From Gammaproteobacteria bacterium (GTDB lineage: Bacteria; Pseudomonadota; Gammaproteobacteria; Xanthomonadales; SZUA-36): a stretch of 64,000 bases of DNA. Every line of letters begins with the position of its first letter. Within the stretch, counting starts at the first letter, position 1. The stretch spans positions 1,098 through 65,097 of the forward strand of contig JAJRYF010000064.1 in the NCBI GenBank assembly GCA_024275935.1, given 5' to 3'. Shown one piece after another: positions 25,829 to 41,114 of the stretch. The notes under the pieces were generated by a model that did not search any database, was not told the DNA's origin, and worked only from the letters and a program-made list of their open reading frames with translations. The translations under genes and the position numbers were made by a program.

Positions 25829-25902
25829 TGGCTGGGGGAGAGGGACTTGAACCCCCGCTGACGGAGTCAGAGTCCGTAGTACTACCACTATACGATCCCC
25901 CA
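25829..25902 (-). tRNA. tRNA-Gln (anticodon CUG), CCA encoded
   Basis: I folded the cloverleaf by hand. Acceptor stem is TGGGGGA/TCCCCCA and D arm is GTAT-AGTGGTA-GTAC. Anticodon arm is ACGGA-CTCTGAC-TCCGT (anticodon CTG). T arm is GGGGG-TTCAAGT-CCCTC, then discriminator G and CCA. Confidence 0.9.
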
Positions 25903-27936: not shown

Positions 27937-28161
27937 ATGATCACCTCAGCAGTACAGGAAGATTGGATGTCACCTTTTCCCCACATTTCAGCTACTCTGA
28001 ATAGCGAGAGTCAAAGCACAGATACAGTAGAGGCCACTAATAGCATGGCTCCCACTCACAACAAGGACCTGACTGCCTTCTTCGCGATTGGCATGACTAT
28101 AAACATTATAATTGTGGTGACATTTATTATCTGGGGCTTCAAACAATGGAATAGAAAATGA
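27937..28161 (+). CDS. Small single-TM membrane protein, hypothetical
   Basis: 74 aa with a C-terminal TM helix (FFAIGMTINIIIVVTFIIWGF). Its stop overlaps the SCO1 start by 4 nt (ATGA). Confidence 0.4.
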   Translation: MITSAVQEDWMSPFPHISATLNSESQSTDTVEATNSMAPTHNKDLTAFFAIGMTINIIIVVTFIIWGFKQWNRK

Positions 28162-28814
28162 AGCAACAACCAGGCAAAAAAAACTTACCAGTGGGTACAA
28201 TCTTTATATTCAGCCTCTGGGTGCTGGTTGGTGTAATGGCATATTCTTACTGGAATTCACGCGCAGCAGTGGCCACTCCACCAGCAGAGCTAATGGGAGT
28301 ACTACGCCCCGAGCCAAAAACACTCGAAAATTTTAGCTTGACCAATCAAGACGGAAGAATTTTCAACCAGACTGACCTTAGCGGTCTCTGGACTTTTTTG
28401 TTTTTTGGCTTTACCTCATGCCCAGATGTCTGCCCAACAACATTATCGATCCTCAATATAGTAGATCAGCAACTCAAATCCGATTCGCCAGAGACCGCTG
28501 ACACTCAGGTTGTATTAATCTCAGTCGATCCAAACAGGGATACTCCAGAAAAACTTGCTAAATACATATCTTTTTTTAATCAGGATTTTATCGCCGCTAC
28601 TGGCTCAAAAGCAGAAATTGACCAGTTCACTAAAATGACTAGCGCCGGCTATATGTTTGAAGATGAAACCTCACCAGGGGTATATCAGGTTAACCACACC
28701 AGCGCCATTTTTCTGATCGACCCTCAAGCCAGGCTAGTGGCCTCGTTTTCACAACCACATAGGCCCGATACCATTGTCGAGCAGTTCCGACAAATTCGTA
28801 AATACTTTGAGTAA
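28158..28814 (+). CDS. SCO1/SenC-family copper chaperone
   Basis: N-terminal TM anchor, CPDVCP (CxxxC) motif and a downstream conserved His (NHTSAIFLIDP). Confidence 0.9.
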   Translation: MKQQPGKKNLPVGTIFIFSLWVLVGVMAYSYWNSRAAVATPPAELMGVLRPEPKTLENFSLTNQDGRIFNQTDLSGLWTFLFFGFTSCPDVCPTTLSILNIVDQQLKSDSPETADTQVVLISVDPNRDTPEKLAKYISFFNQDFIAATGSKAEIDQFTKMTSAGYMFEDETSPGVYQVNHTSAIFLIDPQARLVASFSQPHRPDTIVEQFRQIRKYFE

Positions 28815-28917: not shown

Positions 28918-29412
28918 TTAATCTTTGGCCTGATTAAACTTGATGATGTGGTCATTCAACATTCCGGCTTTTCTCATCTCCAGGGAATCATCAGTGAACT
29001 TTACCCGACAAGGTGCTGTGCCGTTACATTCAAATCGGTATTGTCCTTCATCCATGCTGGTAAAAAATTCTACATGAGCCAGGGTACTCTGCTCCAGCAA
29101 TGAGAACTTGCCCCGTGTATAGGTTTCTGGTTTTACCTTCTCGATAACCTGACTAAATACCTGATGAATAGTTTTAGTTTGCAAGTTTCTTGAATAAGGG
29201 TACGGAACATACAGCATGACCACACGCTGGTCCGGATAAAACTTCAAGAAAAGCTCACTACCGGTTATTTTAGCCACTCGATTATCATCATTGTCTCTAT
29301 AAAAGTAACCAGAATACATATCTGCCGAATCAGCTACGGCACTCGTGCCTGCTAGCAACAGAAATAATCCCGCTATACATACCGCCGGTAAGTTTTTATT
29401 GATTGATTTCAT
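28918..29412 (-). CDS. Hypothetical secreted protein
   Basis: Signal-peptide-like N-terminus (MKSINKNLPAVCIAGLFLLLAGTSAVA). No recognisable motif. Start chosen at the ATG at 29412. Confidence 0.45.
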   Translation of the reverse strand: MKSINKNLPAVCIAGLFLLLAGTSAVADSADMYSGYFYRDNDDNRVAKITGSELFLKFYPDQRVVMLYVPYPYSRNLQTKTIHQVFSQVIEKVKPETYTRGKFSLLEQSTLAHVEFFTSMDEGQYRFECNGTAPCRVKFTDDSLEMRKAGMLNDHIIKFNQAKD

Positions 29413-29494
29413 TATCTTATTCACCTTGAACCTCAATTACACATATAATATACATATATTGAAACACTCGGTATGATGCAGGTCAGATATTAAC

Positions 29495-29920
29495 TTGGAT
29501 ATTATCCTCTACCTCCCACACATATTAGCAATTCTCAATGCAAGCACTATCTTGCTGCTGATTAGCGGATATTATTTTATTCGCAACAAGCAGCCTCAGG
29601 TACATCGTGCCTATATGTTATCAGCATCGGCTGTGGCCGCAATTTTCCTGGTTTGTTACCTGGTATACCATGCCAAAGTTGGTTATATACCTTTTGCTGG
29701 TGAAGGTGCAATTAGACCTTATTACTTCACCATTTTGGCCTCTCATGTCATTCTAGCGGCAATCGCTGCACCGTTAATTCTAATTACTCTCGTACTTGCC
29801 CTACGAGGAAAATTTACGCTTCACCGGCGTTTCGCACGCTGGATATTTCCACTCTGGCTATATGTTTCTATTTCCGGACTAAGTGTTTACTTTCTTTCTT
29901 TCCACATTTACCCAAACTGA
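29495..29920 (+). CDS. DUF420-family membrane protein (cytochrome oxidase associated)
   Basis: Four TM helices with LPHILAILNASTILLLISGYYFIR....HRAYMLSA...FLVCYLVYH, typical of DUF420. TTG start. Confidence 0.7.
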   Translation: MDIILYLPHILAILNASTILLLISGYYFIRNKQPQVHRAYMLSASAVAAIFLVCYLVYHAKVGYIPFAGEGAIRPYYFTILASHVILAAIAAPLILITLVLALRGKFTLHRRFARWIFPLWLYVSISGLSVYFLSFHIYPN

Positions 29921-29930
29921 GTAATATTCT

Positions 29931-30140
29931 ATGGAAATCGTCTATTTCACAATCACAGCAATTTTCCTTTATCTGTTTTCTGACTGGCTTCTACAGCGGA
30001 TAGAGCTTAGCCTCGGGCGTCGACTGGAACACAGGTCAGTAATATTCTTTGCGATCATTCTGGTACTTGCAGTCAGCACATTTGCCCTAGTTCAGTCATT
30101 TCAACCGGAAATAGTGAGCGCATCTTTAACTGAGGAGTGA
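29931..30140 (+). CDS. Small two-TM membrane protein, hypothetical
   Basis: 69 aa with two hydrophobic helices. Its 3' end overlaps the convergent HCO-like gene by 15 nt. Confidence 0.3.
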   Translation: MEIVYFTITAIFLYLFSDWLLQRIELSLGRRLEHRSVIFFAIILVLAVSTFALVQSFQPEIVSASLTEE

Positions 30141-31499
30141 TTCAGGTTTAGGTGGCCACATGGCCTTAAATACAATTACCAGAAACATAACCCCACCAAT
30201 AATCGCGATTAGTCCACCGATACCCATAATGAGCATACCAGCCAGTTCTTGGATGTTATCCAGACCCTGAGCCTCACCAGCAGTTTTCCTCTGCACTCCC
30301 CGATTTCCGGATAATGCCAAACCCAGTACATGCATCAACTGACCAACACCAAAAATTATTGGCTGCAGGTTTACACTTCTACCAATTGGCTTCCTGAACC
30401 CAAGCATGGGTAATAAGTGATAGGTCAAACCCATAAATGCCAAAGTTACTGCCACAATTGAGCCATGATAATGTGCAGGTACCGTGACATTACTACCGTC
30501 AATTAGAAAGCCAATAATACCACCGGAACCAAATAACAACATGGAGAACCATAGCGCCGATCGCTCAGCCCTAGCAGTAACAATAGCTTTCCCACTAGAA
30601 ATTACAGCAAGCAAAATTATCAAGGCAAATGGTAGTGCCGCCAAACCGCCACCAAACTGCATCTGCCAGGTAAACCCTAGAAGATGGTTGGCTGAGCCGA
30701 TCTCGTATGCCCAGTAAATATAGATGCCAAACAAGGCAGGAATTGCTCCCAGAGCAAACAATAGCAGAGCCACCCGTGGGTTTAGGCGTAATTTGGCACC
30801 GGATACAGCAGCCAGCCATAACCATGCCACCAACATCAACTGCACATGCATAAATTGGATAGTGTGACCACTAGCCCAGAAAAGCAATTCGTAGTATGTC
30901 GTATCCTGGGCAAAAGCTGGCATTCCAATCCATGAAGCAAACAGCGCCAGTATCGATAACAGCCCAATCACTAATGCTGTATATAAACCGAAACGCAAAG
31001 CCGCCCCGCTACGAATATAGTGACCAACCGCCTGAGAGAAAAATAGACCACGCAAAACCAGCAAGCCAAACCCTAAACCAAACAACCCCAGCCCAGCAAA
31101 AAATATTGGATCACGCAACACTGGAACATAGTTGTTCATCAGCGGATCACCCGCACCTAGAAACGGTGCAATGCTTATTATTGTGGCGCCACCAACACAT
31201 AAATATAAAGCTACCCAGCCACAAGTCTGACATGCGGTTGAACTATTTAAGCTCCATAACACACCGGCAAAGGATAAAAACCAAACCACTACAGTAAGAT
31301 CTACATGCACCACCAAAGCGGTATGAAAGAAATCAACCCAAGGGAAAATATCCTGAATTCCAGGCGTACGCGAGAGCACTACAAGCAGGGTATAAAGCCC
31401 TGCTACTACCAGCGACCCTAACGCCAGCATAAGCCAACCAATAGCCAGGCGCCGACTCCCGGAGTCAGGGGCAGGTAATGAAAAGGCAAGCTTCAGCAT
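30126..31499 (-). CDS. Divergent 12-TM heme-copper oxidase subunit-I-like protein with a non-canonical CuB site
   Basis: By-eye alignment to the adjacent subunit I and to the remembered Thermus ba3 subunit I. Helix II has a His (ALVVHVDL). Helix VI reads FWASGHTIQF, with the His present and Phe at H+4. The helix VII doublet reads ANH instead of HH. Helix X reads VPAHYHGS, so both heme His are present. Twelve hydrophobic segments; no subunit II is adjacent. Confidence 0.7.
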   Translation of the reverse strand: MLKLAFSLPAPDSGSRRLAIGWLMLALGSLVVAGLYTLLVVLSRTPGIQDIFPWVDFFHTALVVHVDLTVVVWFLSFAGVLWSLNSSTACQTCGWVALYLCVGGATIISIAPFLGAGDPLMNNYVPVLRDPIFFAGLGLFGLGFGLLVLRGLFFSQAVGHYIRSGAALRFGLYTALVIGLLSILALFASWIGMPAFAQDTTYYELLFWASGHTIQFMHVQLMLVAWLWLAAVSGAKLRLNPRVALLLFALGAIPALFGIYIYWAYEIGSANHLLGFTWQMQFGGGLAALPFALIILLAVISSGKAIVTARAERSALWFSMLLFGSGGIIGFLIDGSNVTVPAHYHGSIVAVTLAFMGLTYHLLPMLGFRKPIGRSVNLQPIIFGVGQLMHVLGLALSGNRGVQRKTAGEAQGLDNIQELAGMLIMGIGGLIAIIGGVMFLVIVFKAMWPPKPESLLS

Positions 31500-31514
31500 A
31501 AGTTTAATATGGAT

Positions 31515-32015
31515 TTATTTGAATACAAAACCATCCTCCGAGTTAAAATCAATCAATAATTGTTGGGCGGGCTCCAACTTTATATTTTGGCTTGCGACAA
31601 ATCGACTACCCTGCAGGTGAACACTATCGTTCATCTTAACCTCAAAATGGTGTTGACCTGCCGTAACTTTGACTGACCGATAGACATTTACACTGCCATC
31701 GGCAAACAAACCCGGTGGTTGAGCGGTAATATTAAATAACTCTTCGCCATCCATGCTGACCTCTATTTTTATCGGTGAGCGCTCGCGTGGACAATCCATG
31801 GGCTTACGCATATTGGGTGCAAGCTTGGCCAGGTCTTCCGCTGAGACTTTACGGCAAGGCTTTAACAACTCTCCACTATGGCTTACAGAAATCACTACAA
31901 CAGCCTGGTTCGGCTCTAGATAACGATAAGCCGGGGCCGCAGAGAAATACCAAACCAGGGCCATAAAAATGGCATAGTTAACGATCTGTAGTGTGTGCTT
32001 TATGAACTTATTCAT
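31515..32015 (-). CDS. Membrane-anchored periplasmic protein, hypothetical
   Basis: Start placed at the ATG at 32015, which overlaps the upstream stop by 8 nt (ATGAATAA). One N-terminal TM helix (IVNYAIFMALVWYF) is followed by a soluble domain of about 130 aa. Confidence 0.5.
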   Translation of the reverse strand: MNKFIKHTLQIVNYAIFMALVWYFSAAPAYRYLEPNQAVVVISVSHSGELLKPCRKVSAEDLAKLAPNMRKPMDCPRERSPIKIEVSMDGEELFNITAQPPGLFADGSVNVYRSVKVTAGQHHFEVKMNDSVHLQGSRFVASQNIKLEPAQQLLIDFNSEDGFVFK

Positions 32016-33555
32016 CTTCCACACAGCTTTCATCCAACCTAGGCCCAGGTTTCTCAAGGATACTCAATTTCTGCCGAAACTCATCTAAAGCTTTGGCTAC
32101 AGCCCGGCTATCGGTAATTGCCCCACCATGGATATGGATACGCTCGGCCTCGGCTCTGGCGCGCAATACCGGATGACGAGAAGATGCCATCCTCTGTTCC
32201 ATCCAACGATTGCCAAAGCGGCAATAACAATCTGTGTGCCGACAACCTGCAATCATTACCCCGTCAGCACCATTACTTAGCGCATACTCAACCAGTGCCG
32301 GCGGCAACATTCCACTGCAAATTAGTTTAATCCCTTGAATGTCTTGTGCCTCCAACCCATCCACATCGACCCCATGTTGGCAGCCGAACATGATGATTTT
32401 CGTATCGCCACGCAAGGCCACCAAAGCGGTATCAGTAAGGTTACGAACTTCATTAATGGGAAACTGCGGCATATCAATTCCGGTGTGCAAATCCGGCTCA
32501 GCTTTGCGAAAAGGGTTTGATGAAATACATGCTCCCACACAAATTCCACAGGCAGCACATAAGTCCGGATCAACGACTACCTCATACTCATGACGGGCTC
32601 CATCCGTGCGCGCACGAACTGAAATCGCATCGTAAGGGCAATCCTCAAAGCACTGGGTACAGCCATTGCAATTATTTAGATCTACCACTGCTGCTGGAGC
32701 TTTCTTCTTTGCCGGCAACCAGGGCATCAACATAAGCAGAACCGTGACTCCCATAACCAATGCCCAAACCTGCCCGGGTGTCCAATAGTCCAGTAAAGGA
32801 TATATATTCAGATAAAACCAGTCGAGATTTAGCACAGCCGGCAGCGTAGTTAAGTCAGCCGGGGGATGACTGGTGGCTGGTTTTATTAGTGACAAAACCA
32901 ACATCGCCAGCAAACTGCCAATAGCCAATCCTTTGGGCGGCATAATATTGACATTGGAGAGTCTGCGAACATGAAACCAAAGTACAAAAATCAGCATTAT
33001 CGGCTGACCCAACAAGTGCAGGAACTCGATTAGAATAAAGAATCTATCATTGAGCCTACCATCCACAAAATTACTCGACATAGAACCAAAAAATATTGGT
33101 AACTCATCCATTAACAAGGCAGAGCCAATAGCTAAATATTGAGCCAACTGATCCCACACCAACCAGTACCCAGTAATCCCGAGTAAAACAACCATCCATA
33201 GTGCTGGGATCCCGGTCACCCATGAGTACCATCTAATACCACGGTAACGACCTAATGCAAACTCTCTAAATATATGCAAAATAATAGTCGCTACTGCGGC
33301 ATCTGATGAGTACCTATGCAGGCTTCGCATCACCCCTCCAGCGTACCATTGCTCATTGGTAATTCGTTCGACCGAAGCATAGGCACCATCCAGACTACCA
33401 TGAAAAAATAGAAACAGATAAACACCACTGACCAGTGCTATCCAGAAAAAAAAGAAAGTAAGAGTGCCTAAATGGTAGAGCGGGTTCCATTCCTTAAATG
33501 AAATGTTTAACCATGCCTCCAGCAGTAAATAAAGCCGCTTGACTGGATTCAGCAT
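32008..33555 (-). CDS. Fusion protein: di-heme cytochrome b (N-terminal domain type), 2x[4Fe-4S] ferredoxin and an MvhD/FlpD-like domain
   Basis: Cytochrome b His pairs are RSLHRYSSDAAVATIILH (14 apart) and FLHLLGQPIMLIFVLWFH (15 apart, b6-like), plus the GYWLVWDQL motif. Two Cys clusters follow (CNGCTQCFEDCP and CAACGICVGAC). The C-terminus has KLICSGMLPPALVEYALSNGADGVMIAGCRHTDCYCRFGN, as in methyl-viologen-reducing hydrogenase delta subunit domains. Confidence 0.75.
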   Translation of the reverse strand: MLNPVKRLYLLLEAWLNISFKEWNPLYHLGTLTFFFFWIALVSGVYLFLFFHGSLDGAYASVERITNEQWYAGGVMRSLHRYSSDAAVATIILHIFREFALGRYRGIRWYSWVTGIPALWMVVLLGITGYWLVWDQLAQYLAIGSALLMDELPIFFGSMSSNFVDGRLNDRFFILIEFLHLLGQPIMLIFVLWFHVRRLSNVNIMPPKGLAIGSLLAMLVLSLIKPATSHPPADLTTLPAVLNLDWFYLNIYPLLDYWTPGQVWALVMGVTVLLMLMPWLPAKKKAPAAVVDLNNCNGCTQCFEDCPYDAISVRARTDGARHEYEVVVDPDLCAACGICVGACISSNPFRKAEPDLHTGIDMPQFPINEVRNLTDTALVALRGDTKIIMFGCQHGVDVDGLEAQDIQGIKLICSGMLPPALVEYALSNGADGVMIAGCRHTDCYCRFGNRWMEQRMASSRHPVLRARAEAERIHIHGGAITDSRAVAKALDEFRQKLSILEKPGPRLDESCVEDE

Positions 33556-33612: not shown

Positions 33613-34416
33613 TCAATCACGAACAAAGCGCCGTCTATGCCGCCATTCCTTGAACAACCAAAGGCTGACCAGAAGAATAATCACAGCACCGATGAATATG
33701 CCAATAAACAATGAGTAATCGAAAAAATAACCATCTCTAACGGGATCATAGACTGTACAAAAAAGTTTAACTTTATTAAATAGCCCAGAAAAAAAAGTTT
33801 GCTGTGGCTGCGGTCTTCCCAGCACCAGGTCCTTTAAAGGCTCAACTAATAACGGGGTTTCAAATGCCTGCCCATATACTTGTCTATAGACTTTACCATC
33901 AGCATCAATCACAGTTGCCTGAATAATATGATCAAAACCGTTAGCTGATGGGTAAACTACCAGACCTACATCAGCAACTAAGGCCTTGGCCTCGTTCGCG
34001 TCCATACTAAAGAGCTTCCAGTTAGAACTCTCCAGACCCTGAATTTTTCCGAAATACGCCATTGCCTCTGGAGTATCGACTGTAGTATCAAAGCCAATGG
34101 AAACTACGGAAAAACTATCTTCCCCAAGTGCTGCACGAGCTTTTCCAATCACCTTGGCAAGGTGCCTGGTAGTCATTGGGCAAATTTGATAGCAGCTAGT
34201 ATAGATCATACTCAGCACAAGCGGCTTACCCCTAAGGTCAGCCAGTTCTGAGTGATTACCTTCACTATCGACCAGTGAATAGTTACCAATATGCTTACCA
34301 ATCACAGCCTGACTAGTCTTTAGCGCCGATTTATACTCATACTGATCTTCTTCAGCGACAGCTGAAGAAATCAGAATAAATACAAGGGTCAGAGCTACCA
34401 GCTTTAGCGTACGCAC
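33613..34416 (-). CDS. SCO1/SenC-family copper chaperone with an extra C-terminal TM segment
   Basis: Signal or anchor at the N-terminus, CYQICP (CxxxC) motif, conserved His (FDHIIQATVIDADG) and a C-terminal TM helix (IFIGAVIILLVSLWLF). Confidence 0.8.
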   Translation of the reverse strand: MRTLKLVALTLVFILISSAVAEEDQYEYKSALKTSQAVIGKHIGNYSLVDSEGNHSELADLRGKPLVLSMIYTSCYQICPMTTRHLAKVIGKARAALGEDSFSVVSIGFDTTVDTPEAMAYFGKIQGLESSNWKLFSMDANEAKALVADVGLVVYPSANGFDHIIQATVIDADGKVYRQVYGQAFETPLLVEPLKDLVLGRPQPQQTFFSGLFNKVKLFCTVYDPVRDGYFFDYSLFIGIFIGAVIILLVSLWLFKEWRHRRRFVRD

Positions 34417-34422
34417 ACCATC

Positions 34423-35280
34423 TCAACCGCCAACAGCGACATCAATTATCGCTCCCAGCAATAGTAAGACTAATTGAACAAGAGATGCAAAAAAACTTCC
34501 CATCGCAACTTTCGGGAATGGCTGCTGCACCATCTGCAGATTCTTATAAATAAAATAAGCACCGCCACTAAGAGCACCTAATAAATAAACCCAGCCCATA
34601 CCATAAAAGAACGGCAGGATAGATATGGCTACTAGAACGAGGGTATTGGCTAATACTACTTTAGCGGCCATCCGGTCACCAACCACCACCGGTAGCATGG
34701 GTACGCCTACTTTTTCATAATCACCATGCCTGGCGATAGCCAACGACCAGAAATGTGACGGGGTCCAGAAAAACAACACAAGTGCGAACAATATTGGTAT
34801 CGGGTGCATCCCCGGATCAACAGCTGCGGCGCCAGCCAATACAGCAAAACTACCAGAAGCACCACCAATAACTATATTTAACCAGGTACGGCGTTTAAGC
34901 CAAACGGTATAGACTACTGCGTAAAAGAATGCACCCAGGAAAATATACAAAGCAGATTGAGCGTTTAACACCAAGGCAGCACTACCAACACCGAGAATTA
35001 CCAACAACAGAATTATTCCCAGCCAATAAGGTTTCCTCTGTAATTGACCAGTAACAAATGGACGATCGTTAGTCCTTTGCATCTGAGCATCCAGGTCAGC
35101 TTCATAGTATTGGTTAAAAGCTCCTGCAGCGGCAGCACTAATCAGAACTGCCACCGCCAGCACCAAAATTTCCCATCCCCCCAGGCTTCTTCCCGGGGTG
35201 ATGGCCATGGCCACCAGGGCGGTCAGCATCATGACCACCCCAATACGAAGCTTAAACAAACTAACCAACTGCCTGAGCAT
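34423..35280 (-). CDS. ctaB: Protoheme IX farnesyltransferase (heme O synthase)
   Basis: UbiA-family polytopic protein with NQYYEADLDAQMQRTNDRP and the typical CyoE/CtaB layout. Confidence 0.88.
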   Translation of the reverse strand: MLRQLVSLFKLRIGVVMMLTALVAMAITPGRSLGGWEILVLAVAVLISAAAAGAFNQYYEADLDAQMQRTNDRPFVTGQLQRKPYWLGIILLLVILGVGSAALVLNAQSALYIFLGAFFYAVVYTVWLKRRTWLNIVIGGASGSFAVLAGAAAVDPGMHPIPILFALVLFFWTPSHFWSLAIARHGDYEKVGVPMLPVVVGDRMAAKVVLANTLVLVAISILPFFYGMGWVYLLGALSGGAYFIYKNLQMVQQPFPKVAMGSFFASLVQLVLLLLGAIIDVAVGG

Positions 35281-35289
35281 TATCGTTAC

Positions 35290-37026
35290 TTAGCCAATCG
35301 GCCAAACTGAGGATAGATAACCCCAGTTAATAAAGTAGTAGATAACAAAGCTAACCAACAGCAACATTGCCAAGGCAAAGGTGCCTGGCGCTGCAAAGCC
35401 TGCAGAACCATGCTCCTCAACTGTTAGTTTCTCAGCCCTTTCCAGAGTCGCAGGCTTGTCAACATTGTAGACTTCTGGCGCTAACGCTTTGAGACCGAAG
35501 CTAGCGAAGATACCCGCAGAAGCCTCCAGTTTCTTGCCAAATAACAAGGAGCCAACAGTAACAATGATATAAGCTGCACCACCAATTACTGCCAGAACAC
35601 CACCAATTCCAGCCAACGCCATCATCATATAGGCTGTACCAGGGTAATCAAAACTAAGTGCTGCCCCGGTGAAGCCCATGTCCCAGTGCCTGCGGGAAAC
35701 ACCCAATGTACCAGCTCCCAGCAGGAACAGAATCAACATTGTCATTCCAGCACTGAAAATATATGGCTGCCATTTTGCTAATGTCGGCAAAAACAATTGC
35801 CGCCTGAACAGCACCGGAATCAACAGGTATGTCAATGCCATAAAGGTCAGAGTGGTACCTACTGCTACCGTGGCATGAAAATGTCCCGGAACATACATGG
35901 TGTTATGGATAATAAGATTGATTTGCTCAGTACCCATTACCACGCCAGTTATCCCGCCTAGGAAGCCAAAGATAACCAGTGCCAAGAAGAAACCTGAGAA
36001 TACCGGATTGCCCCAAGGAGCCTTCCGCAACCACTCAAACAAACCCTTGGTAAGCCCTTTCTTACGCTGCGCAATTTCCATTGACCCTGGAACCGAAAGA
36101 CCATGGATCATACTCGCCAATACCGCCAGATACATCGCATAACTGGTATTGAATATCTTCCATTCAGAGCTCATGCCAGGATCTACCAGCAAATGATGAG
36201 CGCTGGCTAACTGTAAGAACAGAATATACAGTAAGAATGCCATTCGACTGACCTTCTCTGACATTGGCCTGGCCATAAATAGGACACCAGCCAACAAGTA
36301 CCAAATAGATACCATAGCGGCCATATTGATCTGTTGCGAGGAATGACCAAAGGCCCACCAGATGAGTCGATACATAACCGCATCAATCTGGTTGATATAT
36401 CCGATTGACCAGAGGAAGGTAGGAATAAGAATAATCGCACCCGAGGCAATCGTAAAAATCGCGATTATAGTAGCTGTGAGTGCACCAAAGGTAACCAATG
36501 GTATGGAACCTTTATAAGTTTTCTCATTCCGAGCTATGATCAAAGTACCCAAGAATACAAAGCAACCTATCAGCGCACCTACCGCAAACAGGATTAAACC
36601 CAGATAGAAATGTGGCTGTGCCTGCATCGGCACATACGAAGTCATCATTACGCTGGACTTACCACTTAACACAGCAATATTATTCATCACTGCGCCAATA
36701 ATCATCAGGGCGAATCCCATCCAAGCCCATCGCGGAGCCGCTAGACGACATCGCAGCAGGGTGGAAGAGGCAAAATATAGCACCGCTATCTCAAAAAATA
36801 TTACCCAGAAAATAAGAGCATTAATACCGTGAGAGGTCAGCACCATATAAAAAGTGTCGGCCGGCAACAGGTGAATGGTCTGCCAACGAGTCAGAATCAC
36901 CCCGAGGGCAGCAACACCCGCCAGCAGTAGGCTGACAACCGCAGCTACAGCGTTAACTTTCATCAGCTGCTCAGCTGATTTGTCAAAATAAAATCCCGAA
37001 TCGGGACAAACTCTAAACTGTGCCAT
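35290..37026 (-). CDS. B-family-like heme-copper oxidase subunit I lacking the cross-link tyrosine (sNOR/NorY-like candidate NO reductase)
   Basis: Colinear with the ba3 subunit I. Matches include TSHGINALIF, IWWAFGHSSQQ (His present, Gln at H+4 where ba3 has GHPIVY), ASAHHLLVDPG and HNTMYVPGHFHATV. Confidence 0.8.
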   Translation of the reverse strand: MAQFRVCPDSGFYFDKSAEQLMKVNAVAAVVSLLLAGVAALGVILTRWQTIHLLPADTFYMVLTSHGINALIFWVIFFEIAVLYFASSTLLRCRLAAPRWAWMGFALMIIGAVMNNIAVLSGKSSVMMTSYVPMQAQPHFYLGLILFAVGALIGCFVFLGTLIIARNEKTYKGSIPLVTFGALTATIIAIFTIASGAIILIPTFLWSIGYINQIDAVMYRLIWWAFGHSSQQINMAAMVSIWYLLAGVLFMARPMSEKVSRMAFLLYILFLQLASAHHLLVDPGMSSEWKIFNTSYAMYLAVLASMIHGLSVPGSMEIAQRKKGLTKGLFEWLRKAPWGNPVFSGFFLALVIFGFLGGITGVVMGTEQINLIIHNTMYVPGHFHATVAVGTTLTFMALTYLLIPVLFRRQLFLPTLAKWQPYIFSAGMTMLILFLLGAGTLGVSRRHWDMGFTGAALSFDYPGTAYMMMALAGIGGVLAVIGGAAYIIVTVGSLLFGKKLEASAGIFASFGLKALAPEVYNVDKPATLERAEKLTVEEHGSAGFAAPGTFALAMLLLVSFVIYYFINWGYLSSVWPIG

Positions 37027-37032
37027 GATTCT

Positions 37033-37569
37033 TTACTCCTTCACAATCATTTTGCCAAGCATCATGTGATGCCCGATGCCGCAATATTCATTGCAGACAA
37101 TCGCGAAATCACCTGATTGATCAGGCGTTAATTTGATAACCATTTCATAACCCGGAATAACCTGCAGGTTAATATTCACAGGCTGCAGGGAGAAGCCGTG
37201 CTGCCAGTCGAGTGAGGACAAGTGCAGCCGGTAACTCTTATCTTTTTCCAACTCAAGAATTGGATACCACTGCCAGAGACGACCAAGCAGGTAAATATCA
37301 CTACCAGCCGGGGGAGTGACGATTGGTACCCCACCTTCCTCACCGGTCTGGTACTTCTCAACCATTTCATCCACCCTAGCTTTAAACTTCGCCGGAGTAG
37401 TCTGATAGGCCTCATTAGAAAGGTTCTGTTTTCCGTAAACATGCCAGAAAGGCATCATAAAAAACATGATCAAACACCACACCAAGGCAATGCCGATCCA
37501 TAAAATCTCTTCTTTGCCGAGAGGTGTTTTCCACCATATTCGCTCAGCAGGTGGTTGAAATGTAGTCAT
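37033..37569 (-). CDS. Oxidase subunit II with an intact CuA site, single TM helix (NorS-like)
   Basis: CuA ligand pattern H(GFS)...CNEYCGIGHHMM fits CxExCGxxHxxM. One N-terminal TM helix, as in ba3-type subunit II. A strong RBS (AGGGAGGG) lies upstream. Confidence 0.85.
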   Translation of the reverse strand: MTTFQPPAERIWWKTPLGKEEILWIGIALVWCLIMFFMMPFWHVYGKQNLSNEAYQTTPAKFKARVDEMVEKYQTGEEGGVPIVTPPAGSDIYLLGRLWQWYPILELEKDKSYRLHLSSLDWQHGFSLQPVNINLQVIPGYEMVIKLTPDQSGDFAIVCNEYCGIGHHMMLGKMIVKE

Positions 37570-38105: not shown

Positions 38106-38924
38106 TCAATGACTAAAGTTAAGCTCTAAACTAAGCTTGTCTATAGTCACAATAATGCCCTTACTTGGCCCTGAAATTATTCTCAGCCGTGCCACCGACA
38201 GGTTATCCTCATTGGTTAAAAACTCCCCTGGCCCTGGAATATTAATTTGTTGAATAATTTTCCAACTATCCATATTTACCAGACTAACAATGCCGTCTAG
38301 CATATCGGGTATTGCCAATAGTGCTCCACTCTGGTGTTTCCACTGTAAAGCAAGAGCCGGGCGGGGTTTGGGAGAGCTTCTGATCTTATCGGCAACTACT
38401 CTGGCCATATCCAAATCTACAATCTGAAGTTTACCGTGGCTTGATACCCCCACCAGAAACACACCCTGAGGATCAACATATAAGTCTGATAACGGACTGT
38501 TTGTATGAATCACACGCACGGGAAAGGCATCCGCTTTGGCATTTTCTCCAGAATCTACCCGATAGTCATGTACCCAGCTGGCAAACCCAGGCGGTGGTTC
38601 ATCCGCATATGAGATTTGCCAAATTTCAGCAATATCTGTAAGCGCCACAATGAAGCTTTCTCTTACAGGCAGCGTATATACCGCACTTATACCAGATCTA
38701 TCACCGTGAAAGTTGCGGACTGTTTTGGATAACAACACATTACCCGAGCGGGCATCCTGAATTTGCAACTGGAACGGCGTTATGGAGCTTATCTGATATC
38801 GCTTATCTGCCGATATCGCTATAGCATGCTCAGCTTTGCTCGAAATACTCAAAGAGCCTGCATAAACCCCGGTTGCCAGTAGTAGCAAAACGCTCAGATA
38901 CAGAAGCACTCTAAAAAACATCAA
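38106..38924 (-). CDS. Periplasmic protein resembling part of a cytochrome cd1 beta-propeller, without a heme c domain
   Basis: Signal peptide. The segment IAEIWQISYADEPP...LYVDPQGVFLVGVSSHGKLQIVDLDMARVV parallels NirS in this window (LGQMWQVDYSDLDN...FFDPTGRYFQIAANASDKMVIVDSKTGKL). Confidence 0.5.
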   Translation of the reverse strand: MMFFRVLLYLSVLLLLATGVYAGSLSISSKAEHAIAISADKRYQISSITPFQLQIQDARSGNVLLSKTVRNFHGDRSGISAVYTLPVRESFIVALTDIAEIWQISYADEPPPGFASWVHDYRVDSGENAKADAFPVRVIHTNSPLSDLYVDPQGVFLVGVSSHGKLQIVDLDMARVVADKIRSSPKPRPALALQWKHQSGALLAIPDMLDGIVSLVNMDSWKIIQQINIPGPGEFLTNEDNLSVARLRIISGPSKGIIVTIDKLSLELNFSH

Positions 38925-38937
38925 TACTACCTAGTGA

Positions 38938-39264
38938 CTATTCAATCACATGAACGATTCCGGTCATTTTCGGATGTGGCCCACAACGGTAAGGAAAGCT
39001 TCCAACTTCATCGAATACGCGCTCATAGAACTCATCTGGAAACAGGTAATCTGGCTCTTCTTCACCGGAGGCTTCAAACCAGACATTGTGGTACTGGCGC
39101 TGCTCCTGATTTTCCCAACGGACAGTAGTCCCACGCTTGATAGTAATTTCTTGTGCGCTGAACTGGAAGCCCTTAATAACTACAATAGTTAGCTTATTAT
39201 CTGTGCGAACCTCCTGGGCGAAAACAACCAGCAGAAATATCATCAAATAAGTTTTCCAGCGCAT
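38938..39264 (-). CDS. Amicyanin-like type-1 copper protein (cupredoxin)
   Basis: Signal peptide. Cu ligands are His (QYHNV) and C-G-P-H-P-K-M, with the same spacing as the amicyanin C-T-P-H-P-F-M. Confidence 0.8.
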   Translation of the reverse strand: MRWKTYLMIFLLVVFAQEVRTDNKLTIVVIKGFQFSAQEITIKRGTTVRWENQEQRQYHNVWFEASGEEEPDYLFPDEFYERVFDEVGSFPYRCGPHPKMTGIVHVIE

Positions 39265-39278
39265 ATAATTATTCCTGT

Positions 39279-41114
39279 CTATTGAGCTATGGCATTAATT
39301 TCAGCGCCATCGTCATCGAAGCCCAGCTTAAATCCAAGCGATACATGATGGAAACGACTACTAGAGTAATCATCATGAATGGCAAAACCAATGTTATACC
39401 GCTGGTCAAGCACCATGCTGATATCTCCTGGCTGCTCCGAAGTCAACTTACGCACCATCTCAACTGTCCACAGGCCATCTTTCAATTCACCGATAAAGCT
39501 TACCCCCTGACCTCCGGTCATTACCCGCTCTGCAAGAATATAGCCATCCTCGGCTTCACCTGTGCCTGATTTATATCGCAGCAGGTCCATAAAAGAGCCA
39601 TTTTCAAGCGCTGCCTGAATTTCAGCCTCAGTTTTCAGCTTATCCCAGCCACCACGCGGCTTACCATCTTTGCCGTCAATTTCAATTTCGGTACGGCTTT
39701 CTTTGAGATACTTGGTAAAGCCATGACTTAAATCCAGTCTTGCCGCAAGCGGGCTGCTCGACAGGATGGCTTTATCAGGCTGATCAGGCATATCGTTGTT
39801 ATCTTGATGACAACTCTGCCAGCAACCGGCGCGTTCTGCATATTCAACCTTTGGGTTCTCTTCGTTATCGGTTGTCAGCATCAATGCCAATTTGATTTGA
39901 TTGTCAGGGTCCTGCTTGCCGCCATCCACAAAAGGAATGGCTACATGCTCAGTATCTTCCCACTGAAAACGCATATACAGAAACTCTTTATTGTGGGCCG
40001 CCTGGATATTCAAATTAATATACCCACGCTTACCGGCTATTGGGGTAGGCTCCAGCTTTTCACCGCTGATAATTAGATCACCGATATCAACTTCTTCATC
40101 CTGGTGGCATTCGACACAACGATCACCCTTGGTGAATGCTCTTTTGCCGCCATGATCACTACCCTTCAACATCCATTCCATGGAAGACTGGCCGGGGTAA
40201 AACAAAACTATCTCAGTTGCCTCTATTGCACTCCATGCAATTTCTTTGCTGTTCGCAGGGAGCACGACCGGAGTACTTGCAGTAGCGGCAATCGTTTGCG
40301 TATCTTCTGATACTGGTACAGCTTTATTATCTATCGCACTGACAGCTACTTGCGCTGCAGCTTCATCAACTGTATCTGCCGGGGCTTCAACCTCTGTCTG
40401 CGCTTCTGACGCCTGCGTAGGTATAGTTTTAGTAGGCGCTTCTGCACCTTTATTTTCTGCCTCAACTAAAGCTTGCCATTGCGACGCTAAAGGACGACCA
40501 ATCAACTTGGGATTAGGTAGTGCGAGTTGATCAAGCTCTTCTTCGGTTAATTCATCATGCACTTTGGTATGTGCGATGCCTTTATGACAATCAATACAGG
40601 TGTTGCCGCTTTGCATTCCACTCAAATGTTGTTTCCGCGAACGCTTTTTCTGTTCCGCAGGGTCCATAGAGTCAAAATCGTGACAGTTTCTGCATTCACG
40701 AGAATCAGTTGACTTCATCGCCGTCCAGACTCTGCGAGCCATAACCAGACGGTGTGCATCAAATTTTTCCGGGGTATCGATGGTTCCAAGGGCTTTGTGT
40801 AAAAGTTCTTTGCTGGCTTGTACTTTTCTGACTACCTTATGCACCCATGGGTCTGGAACATGGCAATCTGAACAGGAAGCACGCACTCCACTACGGTTAC
40901 TAAAATGTTTTGTTTCTTTATACTCTTTATAGACGTTATCTTTCATTTCATGACAGGAAATACAAAACTCCATTGTATTTGTAGCTTCCATGGCGGTGTT
41001 AAAACCGCCCCAGAAGATAACACCAACCAGCATGAAAAACAAAGCTGCACCAACTGAGGCACCGAGCATGATTTTTCTTGAGAAGAAACCGGGCTTACTT
41101 TTACTGGTAGTCAT
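39279..41114 (-). CDS. NapC/NirT-type tetraheme cytochrome c fused to a C-terminal EB_dh/cytochrome c-552-like heme domain
   Basis: N-terminal TM anchor and four CxxCH motifs (CISCH, CSDCH, CRNCH, CIDCH with KGIAH). An Ala/Glu/Thr/Val-rich linker follows. The domain of about 330 aa has a fifth CxxCH (CVECH), a CWQSCH motif and EB_dh-like segments (YMRFQWED, GFAIHDD). Confidence 0.8.
   Translation of the reverse strand: MTTSKSKPGFFSRKIMLGASVGAALFFMLVGVIFWGGFNTAMEATNTMEFCISCHEMKDNVYKEYKETKHFSNRSGVRASCSDCHVPDPWVHKVVRKVQASKELLHKALGTIDTPEKFDAHRLVMARRVWTAMKSTDSRECRNCHDFDSMDPAEQKKRSRKQHLSGMQSGNTCIDCHKGIAHTKVHDELTEEELDQLALPNPKLIGRPLASQWQALVEAENKGAEAPTKTIPTQASEAQTEVEAPADTVDEAAAQVAVSAIDNKAVPVSEDTQTIAATASTPVVLPANSKEIAWSAIEATEIVLFYPGQSSMEWMLKGSDHGGKRAFTKGDRCVECHQDEEVDIGDLIISGEKLEPTPIAGKRGYINLNIQAAHNKEFLYMRFQWEDTEHVAIPFVDGGKQDPDNQIKLALMLTTDNEENPKVEYAERAGCWQSCHQDNNDMPDQPDKAILSSSPLAARLDLSHGFTKYLKESRTEIEIDGKDGKPRGGWDKLKTEAEIQAALENGSFMDLLRYKSGTGEAEDGYILAERVMTGGQGVSFIGELKDGLWTVEMVRKLTSEQPGDISMVLDQRYNIGFAIHDDYSSSRFHHVSLGFKLGFDDDGAEINAIAQ

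Follow-up and report, generated by a model that had tools for sequence, protein, structure and literature searches.

A heme-copper oxidase homologue with an altered metal site and a cytochrome b/iron-sulfur fusion in the distal part of a probable eNOR operon

Three tightly packed genes in a 64,000-nucleotide stretch of gammaproteobacterial DNA (the window) raise the question of whether a reduced homologue of heme-copper oxidase (HCO) subunit I and a cytochrome b fusion protein form a respiratory enzyme of their own or belong to a larger system. A first-pass annotation had described the trio as an orphan, undescribed respiratory module. From sequence and gene order, the trio is instead the distal part of a conserved seven-gene operon that also encodes a CuA-type HCO, ctaB and sco, and whose assignment to the eNOR type is probable. 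The genes of the operon and its neighbours in the window are as follows.

37033..37569, minus strand: HCO subunit II, 178 aa, opening the operon (Pfam COX2; NCBIfam CoxB/NosZ C-terminal)
35290..37026, minus strand: HCO subunit I, 578 aa (Pfam COX1, 208.9 bits)
34423..35280, minus strand: ctaB, heme O synthase, 285 aa (NCBIfam TIGR01473, 260.9 bits, cut-off 210.3)
33613..34416, minus strand: SCO1/SenC copper chaperone, 267 aa (Pfam SCO1-SenC, 47.9 bits)
32008..33555, minus strand: cytochrome b fusion, 515 aa (Pfam and NCBIfam matches)
31515..32015, minus strand: p180, 166 aa from the ATG at 32015 (homologue alignment, AF2)
30126..31499, minus strand: HCOL, 457 aa, HCO subunit I homologue with 12 TM helices (Pfam COX1, AF2, alignments)
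29931..30140, plus strand: p69, 69 aa, predicted two-helix membrane protein (no Pfam match)
29495..29920, plus strand: DUF420 membrane protein, 141 aa (Pfam DUF420, 135.5 bits)
28918..29436, minus strand: p172, conserved hypothetical protein, secreted or anchored (no Pfam match)
28158..28814, plus strand: second SCO1/SenC-type protein, 218 aa (orthologues annotated SCO1-SenC in loci L001 and L002)

The intergenic distances along the operon are 6, 9, 6, 57, -8 and 15 nt, and the close packing described for the trio is seen in the coordinates: the stop of the fusion gene overlaps the p180 ATG by 8 nt, and positions 31500-31514 separate p180 from HCOL. The automatic list of open reading frames starts p180 at a TTG (32057), but we prefer the ATG at 32015 because the homologues are 164-174 aa long. 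The trio lies within a nirS/NO gene island, flanked by ctaB-sco on one side and DUF420-sco on the other. The p69 gene is convergent with the HCOL gene, the two sharing 15 nt at the 3' end of the latter; p69 was found by tblastn and BLASTP in 34 of 81 loci, in some of them on the same strand directly downstream of HCOL. DUF420, to which the oxidase assembly factor CtaM belongs, is represented near HCOL in L001, L002, L091 and further loci, and orthologues of the second SCO1/SenC-type protein are immediately upstream of HCOL in 9 of 81.

The HCO at the head of the operon has as its subunit II a cupredoxin whose CuA motif, read from the translation, is intact (CNEYCGIGHHM; 45-87% identity over 46 loci). 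Its subunit I carries GHSSQQIN, which is without the cross-link Tyr, together with an intact HH doublet and HFH, all invariant among 43 orthologues, and is probably a B-family-derived NO reductase of the eNOR type. The orthologues in Gallionella share 58-60% identity and an identical gene order, and these loci agree with the Ferrigenium operon that has been reported as eNOR, so eNOR is more likely for this enzyme than the sNOR-like identity first proposed. In eNOR, heme As is reported in both sites, and expression requires micro-oxic conditions.

The 515-aa fusion joins b6-type cytochrome b helices A-F to two [4Fe-4S] motifs and a [2Fe-2S] MvhD/FlpD domain, an architecture recognised at first sight and recovered by Pfam as Cytochrome_B (54.8 bits, cut-off 27.2), FlpD (62.9 bits, cut-off 22.3) and several Fer4 models; ExtP, ExtQ, cytochrome b6 and the HdrA2 C-terminus are further Pfam and NCBIfam matches. 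Its heme His pairs are spaced as had been noted, 14 residues apart at 80/94 and 15 at 180/195. Two CxxCxxCxxxCP clusters had been reported; the first stands (Cys 296/299/302/306), while the second (Cys 333/336/339/343) departs slightly, with Ile in place of Pro. The MvhD/FlpD Cys residues are 392, 413, 438, 443 and 445. The cytochrome b of the fusion is of the bc type, no Rieske gene adjoins the fusion gene, and at the PEWY position on the P side the protein reads D245-W-F-Y, in which D-W is invariant and F-Y conserved among 32 orthologues. With this motif kept, the route from quinol through heme b to FeS that had been suggested for the protein is plausible. The FeS/MvhD arm would be cytoplasmic, as six TM helices precede it. 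Gallionella differs in the same operon slot, where the cytochrome b has a [2Fe-2S] ferredoxin and an FAD/NAD(P)H reductase as its fusion partners. We found 3881 homologues of the fusion, and both this family and that of HCOL, with homologues in the thousands, represent more than chance.

The usual neighbour of the fusion is p180, which adjoins it in at least 39 of 53 loci. It consists of a single N-terminal TM helix and a beta-sandwich (AF2 pLDDT 88) that is probably periplasmic, on the P side, in keeping with its initial description as a small membrane-anchored protein. Its invariant residues are H46, C54, N68-M69-R70, C75-P-R-E-R-S-P, D89, D106 and D130. None of its 344 homologues is named, neither Pfam nor NCBIfam gave a match, and a Foldseek search with the model returned nothing at E<=0.001, with no cupredoxin or other redox protein among the matches.

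HCOL is at the edge of recognition by sequence profile (Pfam COX1 36.6 bits, barely above the cut-off of 34.8), and a single-sequence search of the PDB found no HCO. The AF2 model nevertheless has the 12 TM helices expected of a minimal HCO homologue (pLDDT 91.4, pTM 0.93), with subunit I of Thermus thermophilus ba3 as its best Foldseek match (TM 0.71-0.74). Alignment shows HCOL to be paralogous to the subunit I encoded in its own operon (28% identity, E 1e-27 by BLASTP; hhalign probability 100, E 1e-39). In both BLASTP and hhalign, H65, H212 and H343/H345 align with the canonical His residues of that subunit; GHTIQF is opposite GHSSQQ, with F216 at His+4, the position of the cross-link Tyr, and S-A-N271-H272-L-L is opposite S-A-H-H-L-L, so the reported loss of the Tyr to Phe and of one His of the doublet is reproduced. 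The HMMER profile alignment to ba3 shifts the helix VII gap and sets HH against I261/Y262; the doublet is broken under both alignments. HCOL keeps the low-spin heme ligands H65/H345, the high-spin proximal H343 and the propionate pair R404-K405, and its predicted distal site comprises H212, Q215, F216, N271 and H272. In the ba3 alignment HCOL also lacks, in helix VIII, the hydroxyl residues that form part of the K-channel in B-type enzymes. As the first-pass annotation observed, HCOL has neither a cupredoxin subunit II nor a cytochrome c of its own.

The N-H pair is not the signature of the HCOL family, which is present in at least 598 species genomes. Position 271 varies across the family (E/D/G/N/A/S): roughly two thirds of the operon-linked orthologues have E or D there, E-H being the commonest pairing. 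Of 50 distant representatives, only 14 retain H272. The heme ligands are near-invariant over those 50, which share 31-48% identity; H65, H212, Q215, H343 and H345 are 96-100% conserved among representatives. Between gammaproteobacterial orders HCOL identity is 59-72%. We also find HCOL fused to UbiA (heme O synthase-type) within an eNOR-type operon, a cytochrome b::HCOL fusion protein, and C-terminal TPR repeats in 6 of the top 150 representatives.

The operon arrangement is conserved across Gamma- and Betaproteobacteria, which bears out the expected co-occurrence of the trio. Of 40 HCOL loci with full flanks, 36 contain SCO, 35 the eNOR-like subunit I, 33 the cytochrome b fusion, 33 p180 and 32 ctaB, and a complete HCO stands beside HCOL in most loci examined. 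HCOL immediately follows p180 in 45 of the 58 loci that carry both genes. In the other 13 it is apart from p180 and the cytochrome b fusion. A second common gene order (L016, L021, L024, L028, L033, L042, L091) has a divergent p172-sco-HCOL unit, headed by p172, with the fusion and p180 remaining with the eNOR genes. In Nitrospirae and other gammaproteobacterial loci, HCOL is beside ctaB without the fusion, and in L063 it lies between ctaB and candidate CtaA-, SURF1- and coxIII-like reading frames, read without a family search. The hosts mostly belong to lineages named for sulfur or iron oxidation (Sedimenticolaceae, Thiotrichales, Gallionella, Sulfuricaulis).

We tentatively favour, at somewhat less than even likelihood, the explanation that the trio serves eNOR as an accessory module, for redox chemistry or heme handling, and is no respiratory enzyme in its own right. 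Together, p180 and the cytochrome b fusion would form a transmembrane electron wire joining hemes at the outer face of the membrane to the quinone pool and, in the cytoplasm, to NAD(P)H or ferredoxin as carrier. HCOL may bind farnesylated or geranylgeranylated hemes supplied by the adjacent CtaB and would then hold, redox-condition, modify or pass them on; alternatively, it may otherwise scaffold assembly of the eNOR catalytic subunit at low oxygen. Binding of heme O or A and contact with eNOR are putative, suggested by context and fusions. The wire is supported by the His and Cys patterns, DWFY, the Fer2-FAD-NAD variant in the same slot and the cytochrome b::HCOL fusion. The accessory role is supported by the operon membership of the trio, the paralogy of HCOL with subunit I, the position between ctaB-sco and DUF420-sco, the loci in which HCOL adjoins ctaB without the fusion, the UbiA and TPR fusions, the cotranscription of HCOL with p172 and sco in the second gene order, and a non-heme metal site that is weakly constrained while the heme ligands are near-invariant. 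The heme O synthase and TPR fusions and the assembly-gene setting point to maturation or heme handling at least as strongly as to a nitrogen-oxide substrate. Several observations count against this explanation: the modal E/D-H with H212 resembles a 2-His-1-carboxylate non-heme iron site, at which catalysis is possible; the conservation of heme ligands and propionate residues is that of a stable hemoprotein rather than of a transient chaperone; respiratory enzymes typically have a cytochrome b/FeS/flavin chain dedicated to them, which assembly factors seldom do; and one distant HCOL member lies among housekeeping genes, with neither an HCO nor ctaB inside 8 kb. Nor would HCOL be a simple replacement for heme A synthase, since some 20 of 80 loci have a CtaA gene next to the operon.

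The initial view, which we consider doubtful though worth weighing, makes HCOL the catalytic subunit of a self-sufficient membrane reductase acting on NO, O2 or another small oxide. Its high-spin heme would be paired with a remodelled, probably iron, non-heme site (H212, E/D/N271, H272), and the cytochrome b fusion would deliver electrons taken from quinol or from NAD(P)H/ferredoxin in the cytoplasm. HCOL keeps both heme sites in a confidently modelled HCO fold, the modal E/D-H with invariant H212 and Q215 would supply the carboxylate site and recalls the His-to-Asp change reported for gNOR, and the cytochrome b::HCOL fusion, the usual succession of fusion, p180 and HCOL, the nirS/NO island and the existence of at least one distant member that stands alone are all consistent with it. 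However, the putative metal ligands are not conserved, with H272 lost in most distant members, the K-channel hydroxyls are absent from the ba3 alignment, and the complete HCO alongside already does the job in most loci examined; heme O synthase and TPR fusions would be odd for a terminal reductase, and HCOL is separated from its supposed electron donors in the 13 loci noted above.

It is improbable, in our judgement, that the module acts alongside eNOR as a bc-type quinol oxidase that lacks a Rieske protein and bifurcates electrons, a scheme of which one version is proposed in a 2026 Ferrigenium preprint that also reports proteome detection. Quinol would be oxidised at DWFY as a Qo-like site, one electron entering a high-potential branch (p180 and/or the HCOL hemes) on to NO reduction, and the other crossing the membrane by way of hemes bL and bH, reaching the FeS/MvhD or Fer2-FAD arm and from there ferredoxin or NAD(P)+; NO reduction would thereby pay for reverse electron flow in chemolithoautotrophs. 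The b6-type heme spacing, the conserved DWFY, the MvhD and FNR-type modules at the cytoplasmic end implied by the six-helix topology, and p180, a probable P-side anchored protein with invariant His, Cys and Met that usually adjoins the cytochrome b, as expected of an analogue of the Rieske protein or cytochrome f, all agree with such a scheme, as do the names of most host lineages, which suggest sulfur or iron oxidation. Yet the p180 fold search gave no redox protein, HCOL also occurs without the fusion, eNOR already owns a CuA entry for periplasmic donors, and reduction of NAD(P)+ or ferredoxin by quinol through heme b and FeS is thermodynamically demanding. We give little credence to HCOL as a decayed duplicate, a structural partner or regulator without redox chemistry, in a trio that is not one unit and whose fusion and p180 serve otherwise (e.g., as an alternative eNOR donor or in redox sensing). 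The second gene order, the variable metal ligands and the "scaffold" label in the preprint fit this view, but identity of 59-72% across orders with near-invariant heme ligands argues for a cofactor-dependent function, and the cytochrome b::HCOL fusion shows that in some lineages, at least, the two proteins are directly linked in function.

The trio is not wholly undescribed. HCOL is the counterpart of a protein labelled "eNOR scaffold protein of unknown function" in the same preprint, a match made by operon position and the KEGG coxI label, not by sequence; that protein is reported to be common in eNOR operons and was detected in the proteome of a nitrate-reducing Fe(II)-oxidising culture, and the preprint also discusses the two cytochrome b fusions. 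These reports, and the heme As found in both sites of eNOR, are in keeping with the accessory module that we favour. Its analogue would be the heme A synthase Cox15 with Yah1/Arh1, in which a ferredoxin and an NAD(P)H reductase feed a membrane heme protein.

The HCO-like protein HCOL (HCO, heme-copper oxidase/oxidoreductase) is encoded by the last gene of a seven-gene operon on the minus strand, which runs, 5' to 3', through subunit II, subunit I, ctaB, SCO1/SenC, a cytochrome b fusion, the small protein p180 and HCOL, with successive spacings of 6, 9, 6, 57, -8 and 15 nt. The seven genes, with the basis of each assignment, are:

37033-37569, minus strand: HCO subunit II, 178 aa, a cupredoxin whose CuA motif (CNEYCGIGHHM) is intact (domain matches, translation)
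35290-37026, minus strand: HCO subunit I, 578 aa (Pfam COX1, 208.9 bits)
34423-35280, minus strand: heme O synthase CtaB (TIGR01473, 260.9 bits)
33613-34416, minus strand: SCO1/SenC (Pfam)
32008-33555, minus strand: 515-aa cytochrome b fusion (Pfam and NCBIfam)
31515-32015, minus strand: p180, 166 aa (ORF, homologue lengths)
30126-31499, minus strand: HCOL, 457 aa (Pfam COX1)

The 8-nt overlap and the 15-nt gap that the first-pass annotation gave for the last two junctions are exact if p180 starts at the ATG at 32015, a start supported by the lengths of its homologues (164-174 aa). Scans of the operon found promoter-like sites at no more than the shuffle level and terminator sites at about twice the shuffle mean, but these were weak and mostly intragenic, and neither scan gave a usable signal. 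The plus-strand AT skew is strongly positive over the operon (0.13-0.20 between 30000 and 38000) and about zero elsewhere, which fits a minus-strand run of membrane proteins rich in Phe, Leu and Ile.

On the 5' side of the operon lie a truncated 272-aa cytochrome d1-like protein (NirF/N-like; 38106-38924, minus strand), a small cupredoxin (38938-39264, minus strand), a 611-aa fusion of a NapC/NirT tetraheme quinol dehydrogenase with an ethylbenzene-dehydrogenase-gamma-like (EB_dh) heme b domain (39279-41114, minus strand) and nirS, which encodes a 556-aa cytochrome cd1 nitrite reductase (Cytochrom_D1, 387 bits; 41234-42904, minus strand), and these neighbors therefore mark the region as a nitrite/NO island. 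The set of NapC/NirT-EB_dh fusion, cupredoxin and d1-like protein also adjoins the corresponding operons at five other loci (L022, L036, L041, L050 and L091), and because of this recurrence it may form a periplasmic electron-donor branch for nirS and the downstream NO reductase. On the 3' side, the opposite strand carries a conserved 69-aa membrane protein (p69), a DUF420 protein and a second SCO. The p69 gene (29931-30140, plus strand) encodes a predicted two-helix membrane protein with no family match and overlaps the 3' end of HCOL by 15 nt in antisense; it is conserved beside HCOL in 34 of 81 loci, and in several Betaproteobacteria it lies on the same strand as HCOL. No CtaA gene is found in the window. 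Further away, a tRNA-Gln(CTG) gene lies at 25829-25902 on the minus strand, between acetyl-CoA synthetase and rpsI/rplM, and the ORFs called across it are spurious.

The identity of the 578-aa subunit I can be approached through two published sources. The main text of Murali et al. [quoted passage not shown] The same text states that gNOR is the first HCO family in which an active-site His is replaced, and a keyword search of it found no mention of an HCOL-type paralogue. Literature searches on MvhD together with heme-copper enzymes, on HCOs without CuB and on norSY-senC-orf1 found nothing relevant. A preprint on Ferrigenium straubiae describes an operon of eNOR II, eNOR I, heme o synthase, sco1, a cytochrome b fusion, a hypothetical gene that occupies the p180 slot, and an 'eNOR scaffold protein' (IMG 2878407321, KEGG coxI) of unknown function (bioRxiv 10.64898/2026.01.22.701106). 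It reports two "unusual" cytochrome b fusions, one with FeS, FAD and NADH domains and one annotated as ferredoxin/F420-hydrogenase delta subunit, detects both of them and the scaffold protein in the proteome, and suggests a supercomplex linking NO reduction to NAD+ reduction (bioRxiv 10.64898/2026.01.22.701106).

Like the scaffold protein, HCOL is a coxI-like gene that follows genes for subunits II and I, heme o synthase and sco1, and the window and most of the 81 loci agree with this gene order; the label itself carries no functional definition. Gallionella loci with the Ferrigenium layout encode HCOL proteins that are 48-50% identical to the window protein. Because the two layouts match, we infer by synteny that the 578-aa protein is of the eNOR type, setting aside the sNOR label that it had been given, and that HCOL is the counterpart of the Ferrigenium scaffold protein, an equivalence of operon slot and coxI annotation and not of sequence. 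The Gallionellaceae differ from the window: Fer2, FAD and NAD(P)H domains are joined to their first cytochrome b, and the fusion of the MvhD type comes further downstream as a second copy. The trio of cytochrome b fusion, p180 and HCOL has been noticed and named already in the preprint; it is real and widespread, and it is an appendage of the operon of a known enzyme. The first-pass annotation had described it as an orphan respiratory module: the observation of the three genes stands, the orphan status does not, and the interpretation is supported only in part.

Relatives of HCOL are numerous, with more than 6000 matches in 90% clusters, 1454 clusters at 50% identity with E<=1e-3 (581 of them at E<=1e-30), and occurrence in at least 598 species genomes. 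The best 80 genomes belong mostly to the Gamma- and Betaproteobacteria (Sedimenticolaceae, Arenicellales, Thiotrichales, Chromatiales, Sulfuricaulis, Gallionella, Rhodocyclaceae and Noviherbaspirillum) and also include Nitrospirae and Magnetococcales; the operon is present in Noviherbaspirillum sp. ST 5-3 (L046), a strain that has been sequenced and, it seems, isolated. One locus labelled 'uncultured Halobacteria archaeon' (L013, CAWKAE010000009.1) holds a full operon of the proteobacterial type, with an HCOL of 63% identity, and is more plausibly a product of misbinning or mislabelling than evidence of the operon in archaea. Among 40 loci with full flanks, SCO is present in 36, an eNOR-like subunit I in 35, the cytochrome b fusion in 33, p180 in 33 and ctaB in 32. 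The window gene order, with HCOL directly after p180, is found in 45 of 58 loci, and p180 directly follows the cytochrome b fusion in at least 39 of the 53 loci that have both. A second recurring order places the eNOR genes, the cytochrome b fusion and p180 in one unit and p172 (a conserved hypothetical protein, 28918-29436 on the minus strand of the window), sco and HCOL in a divergent unit.

HCOL also occurs outside these arrangements. In Nitrospirae loci the cytochrome b fusion is missing and HCOL comes after a different HCO and ctaB; in a gammaproteobacterial locus (L063) it lies between ctaB and ORFs that, read by eye, resemble CtaA, SURF1 and coxIII; in five of the loci examined for flanks it stands alone within 10 kb, and one distant member sits among cell-division and housekeeping genes. 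Natural fusions occur as well: cytochrome b::HCOL and HCOL::UbiA (of the heme O synthase type) are known from one representative each, and six representatives carry C-terminal TPR repeats. The HCOL::UbiA gene lies directly 3' of an eNOR-type subunit II/I pair whose subunit I shares the GH[SP]SQQIN motif. The gene between sco and p180 in Gallionella encodes a cytochrome b joined to Fer2, FAD_binding_6 and NAD_binding_1 domains, with an MvhD-type copy downstream; such a Fer2-FAD-NAD form is seen at L082:7483-9426 and in the equivalent slot of L056 and L073. Second copies of the cytochrome b fusion were noted in L059, L062, L079, L080 and L084, and several betaproteobacterial operons hold two. 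Genes for hemerythrin-domain proteins, which could bind O2 or NO, lie within a few kb of HCOL in L001 (14308-14760), L002 (13765-14217) and L091 (1760-2326 and 5094-5579); none was seen in the examined part of the window.

HCOL scores barely above the cut-off of the Pfam COX1 model (36.6 against 34.8 bits) and matches no NCBIfam model. Its AF2 model (pLDDT 91.4, pTM 0.93) has 12 helices and, with the Foldseek matches, the 12-TM core fold of the HCO superfamily; the top structural matches are ba3 subunit I (TM 0.71-0.74), with aa3, cbb3 and cNOR ranking lower. A single-sequence search of the PDB found no oxidase, and the family profile was needed to reach ba3 (E 1e-17); this profile matched only ba3-type/B-family and related oxidases, and no qNOR, cNOR or other NOR, and no cbb3, at E<=1. 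HCOL is 28% identical to the subunit I of its own operon (BLASTP, E 1e-27), and the two families align with probability 100 and E 1e-39 (hhalign). By sequence, the operon's own subunit I is thus the nearest relative of HCOL among those compared, and the two are paralogues.

The alignments show which parts of the active site have been kept. H65 aligns with the helix II His of subunit I (BLASTP, hhalign), G-H212-T-I-Q-F with G-H-S-S-Q-Q, S-A-N271-H272-L-L with S-A-H-H-L-L, H343-Y-H345 with H-F-H, and R404-K405 with the heme-propionate-binding Arg pair. In the profile alignment to ba3, H65, H345 and H343 correspond to H72, H386 and H384, and they are kept in 49, 48 and 50 of 50 representatives, so that HCOL has the predicted ligands of a bis-His low-spin heme (helices II and X) and the proximal His of a high-spin heme (helix X). 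The three-His CuB/FeB site is incomplete, with an invariant H212 and a helix VII doublet that reads N271-H272, and the cross-link Tyr of the O2-reducing A, B and C families is absent: F216 stands at its position (His+4), and Q215, at His+3, is the invariant Gln. The HMMER alignment to ba3 shifts the gap between helices VII and VIII and sets HH against I261/Y262; the N-H reading is favored because a close homologue (P0010) retains S-A-H-H-I-L. The Phe for Tyr and the N-H for HH had both been called correctly in the first reading of the sequence.

Across 50 HCOL representatives of 31-48% identity, conservation is 94-100% for H65, H212, Q215, H343, H345 and R404-K405, 90% for E204 and 86% for H390. 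Position 271 is Glu in 25 of the 50 distant representatives, and H272 is kept in 14; among 62 orthologues from genome loci the 271-272 pair is EH in 26, DH in 5, GH in 5, NH in 3, AH in 3 and HH in 1, and we found no link between this motif and genomic context. The K-channel residues S309, T312 and T315 of ba3 helix VIII correspond to G284, A287 and P290 in an alignment-dependent comparison (profile alignment), so HCOL appears to lack the helix VIII hydroxyls of B-family and eNOR-type enzymes. This pattern of conservation indicates that both heme sites of HCOL are strongly constrained and that the second metal site is not.

The cytochrome b fusion matches Cytochrome_B (54.8 bits), Fer4 models and FlpD (62.9 bits, cut-off 22.3) in Pfam, and in NCBIfam cytochrome b6 and ExtP at residues 26-199 and ExtQ, a subunit-IV-like membrane protein, at 214-289; residues 284-500 match positions 567-771 of HdrA2, its C-terminal ferredoxin-MvhD part (86 bits). 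The four heme ligands expected on helices B and D of a bc-type cytochrome b are present as His 80/94 and 180/195, with the b6-type spacing of 14 and 15, and all four are invariant in 32 orthologues. At the position of the PEWY motif of bc complexes, D245-W246 is invariant in the same set and is followed by a conserved F-Y-L. The two cluster motifs span Cys 296-306 (then Pro) and Cys 333-343 (then Ile), and five further Cys in the MvhD part (392, 413, 438, 443 and 445) are candidate [2Fe-2S] ligands, of which C392, C413, C438 and C443 are each retained in at least 97% of the orthologues. By analogy with the topology of bc complexes, the FeS/MvhD arm should face the cytoplasm, because six TM helices precede the ferredoxin part. 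The operon contains no Rieske gene.

The p180 protein matches no Pfam or NCBIfam family, and its 344 homologues are all unnamed. Its invariant residues include H46, C54, N68-M69-R70, C75-P-R-E-R-S-P and several Asp, and its model (pLDDT 88) has one TM helix and a beta-sandwich. Foldseek returned nothing at E<=0.001 and no cupredoxin, and p180 has no similarity to the CuA subunit of the operon (E 2.2). We dropped the reading of p180 as a cupredoxin or subunit II because its only fold matches are generic Ig-like or carbohydrate-binding-module folds at E>=0.0025. HCOL therefore has no CuA cupredoxin partner; the sole CuA subunit is the partner of the 578-aa protein encoded upstream.

The reading that we tentatively prefer is that the trio assists eNOR as an accessory module. 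The cytochrome b fusion would, together with p180, provide an electron path through the membrane that links the hemes of the P side with the quinone pool or with a carrier in the cytoplasm, and HCOL would bind the hemes made by CtaB and hold, condition or deliver them; alternatively, HCOL might scaffold the assembly of subunit I at low oxygen. This is suggested by the placement of HCOL among ctaB, sco, DUF420 and sco, by its fusions to heme O synthase and to TPR repeats, by its adjacency to ctaB in other HCO contexts, by the second gene order, which pairs it with sco, and by the lack of constraint on its metal ligands and proton path. We consider unlikely the proposal of the first-pass annotation that HCOL is an autonomous reductase. 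Its hemes are intact, the modal combination of H212 with E/D271-H272 resembles, at the level of sequence, a 2-His-1-carboxylate iron site, and the cytochrome b::HCOL fusion would suit such an enzyme. The DWFY motif, the modules of low potential and the chemolithoautotrophy of the hosts would all be in line with a Rieske-less, quinol-bifurcating complex that feeds ferredoxin or NAD(P)+; we regard such a complex as improbable. Equally hard to credit is that HCOL is a purely structural relic and the cytochrome b fusion serves another purpose. A long shot is the more specific proposal that the fusion, p180 and HCOL form a Rieske-less bc-type complex that would send one electron of quinol into a high-potential branch toward NO reduction, by way of HCOL and/or eNOR, and drive the other through hemes b and the FeS/MvhD or Fer2-FAD arm to yield reduced ferredoxin or NAD(P)H. 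If this were true, sulfur- and iron-oxidizing denitrifiers would power carbon fixation by a quinone-based form of electron bifurcation.

The enzyme served under the accessory reading bears on N2O emission, since eNOR is reported in the main text of the defining paper to be among the commonest NO reductases (PMC11214002). Its maturation needs heme As and apparently some oxygen, and it is found in sulfur- and iron-oxidizers living near anoxia. Hundreds of species keep the module next to their eNOR genes. Its three parts are each unusual: an HCO paralogue that has retained its hemes while its copper/iron site has drifted, a bc-type cytochrome b wired to ferredoxin-like clusters that are probably cytoplasmic, with no Rieske gene beside it, and an unclassified membrane-anchored beta-sandwich. 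We know of no earlier case in which an oxidase fold was recruited for cofactor handling. As a maturation device, the module would be the first such recruitment and could explain how eNOR is assembled when oxygen is very scarce; a catalytic or bifurcating role would make it a new respiratory enzyme. The HCOL residues of interest are H212, Q215, E204, E/N271, H272 and H390, together with the natural fusions.

Among the systems compared, HCOL is most similar to eNOR subunit I, with which it shares the operon, the 12-TM HCO fold, the His ligands in helices II, VI and X, the helix VI G-H-x-x-Q and the S-A-x-H-L-L at the HH position. It differs in being 121 aa shorter, in having no CuA subunit II of its own, and in several positions: the first His of HH is Asn in the window and Glu or Asp in most relatives, the Gln at His+4 is Phe, the Arg at His-8 is a conserved Glu (E204), and the propionate Arg pair is R-K. 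Helix VIII is rich in Gly, Ala and Pro where ba3 has S309, T312 and T315. The NOD-like qNOR paralogues of Methylomirabilis resemble HCOL in the replacement of a metal-site His, by Asn in the NOD candidates, and in their nitrite/NO context. However, these are close relatives of qNOR with an N-terminal extension that HCOL lacks, whereas HCOL matches only B-family/ba3-type sequences in the PDB, and we rejected the assignment on family relationship, with no qNOR or cNOR at E<=1 and RdNOR only 50th in the fold ranking. Similar to HCOL, gNOR, a proposed NO reductase family, is related to the B family, is reported mainly from sulfidic habitats and has a carboxylate for a metal-site His (Asp in gNOR, E/D271 in most HCOL relatives). 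In HCOL, however, the replacement is not fixed, the window protein having Asn, and its neighbor p180 has no cupredoxin match, whereas gNOR has a cupredoxin-fold subunit II without CuA; the main text on gNOR gives 156 GTDB genomes (PMC11214002), against at least 598 species genomes for HCOL. We did not adopt a gNOR assignment, given the variable position 271 and the partner without a cupredoxin match, a comparison made against the description of gNOR only.

The cytochrome b fusion resembles cytochrome b6 with subunit IV, and bc1, in its 14/15 His spacing, its helices A-F and its DWFY at the PEWY site, but its operon encodes neither a Rieske protein nor a cytochrome c1 or f, and the cytoplasmic end, unlike the Qi-site end of b6f and bc1, consists of 2x[4Fe-4S] and MvhD, or of Fer2-FNR in Gallionella. 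Residues 284-500 resemble the C-terminus of HdrA2 and the MvhD of Mvh hydrogenase, with FlpD above its Pfam cut-off; unlike those systems, the fusion has no HdrA flavoprotein, hydrogenase or heterodisulfide reductase nearby and is tethered to a membrane cytochrome b. In yeast, ferredoxin and ferredoxin reductase (Yah1/Arh1) supply electrons to the heme A synthase Cox15/CtaA. The fold of Cox15/CtaA is unrelated to that of HCOL, and a role for HCOL as a simple heme A synthase substitute is weakened because CtaA itself lies beside about 20 of 80 operons. The trio may nonetheless be a functional analogue of that system, as a two-heme membrane protein that adjoins or is fused to heme O synthase and is accompanied by a chain of the ferredoxin/NAD(P)H-reductase kind.
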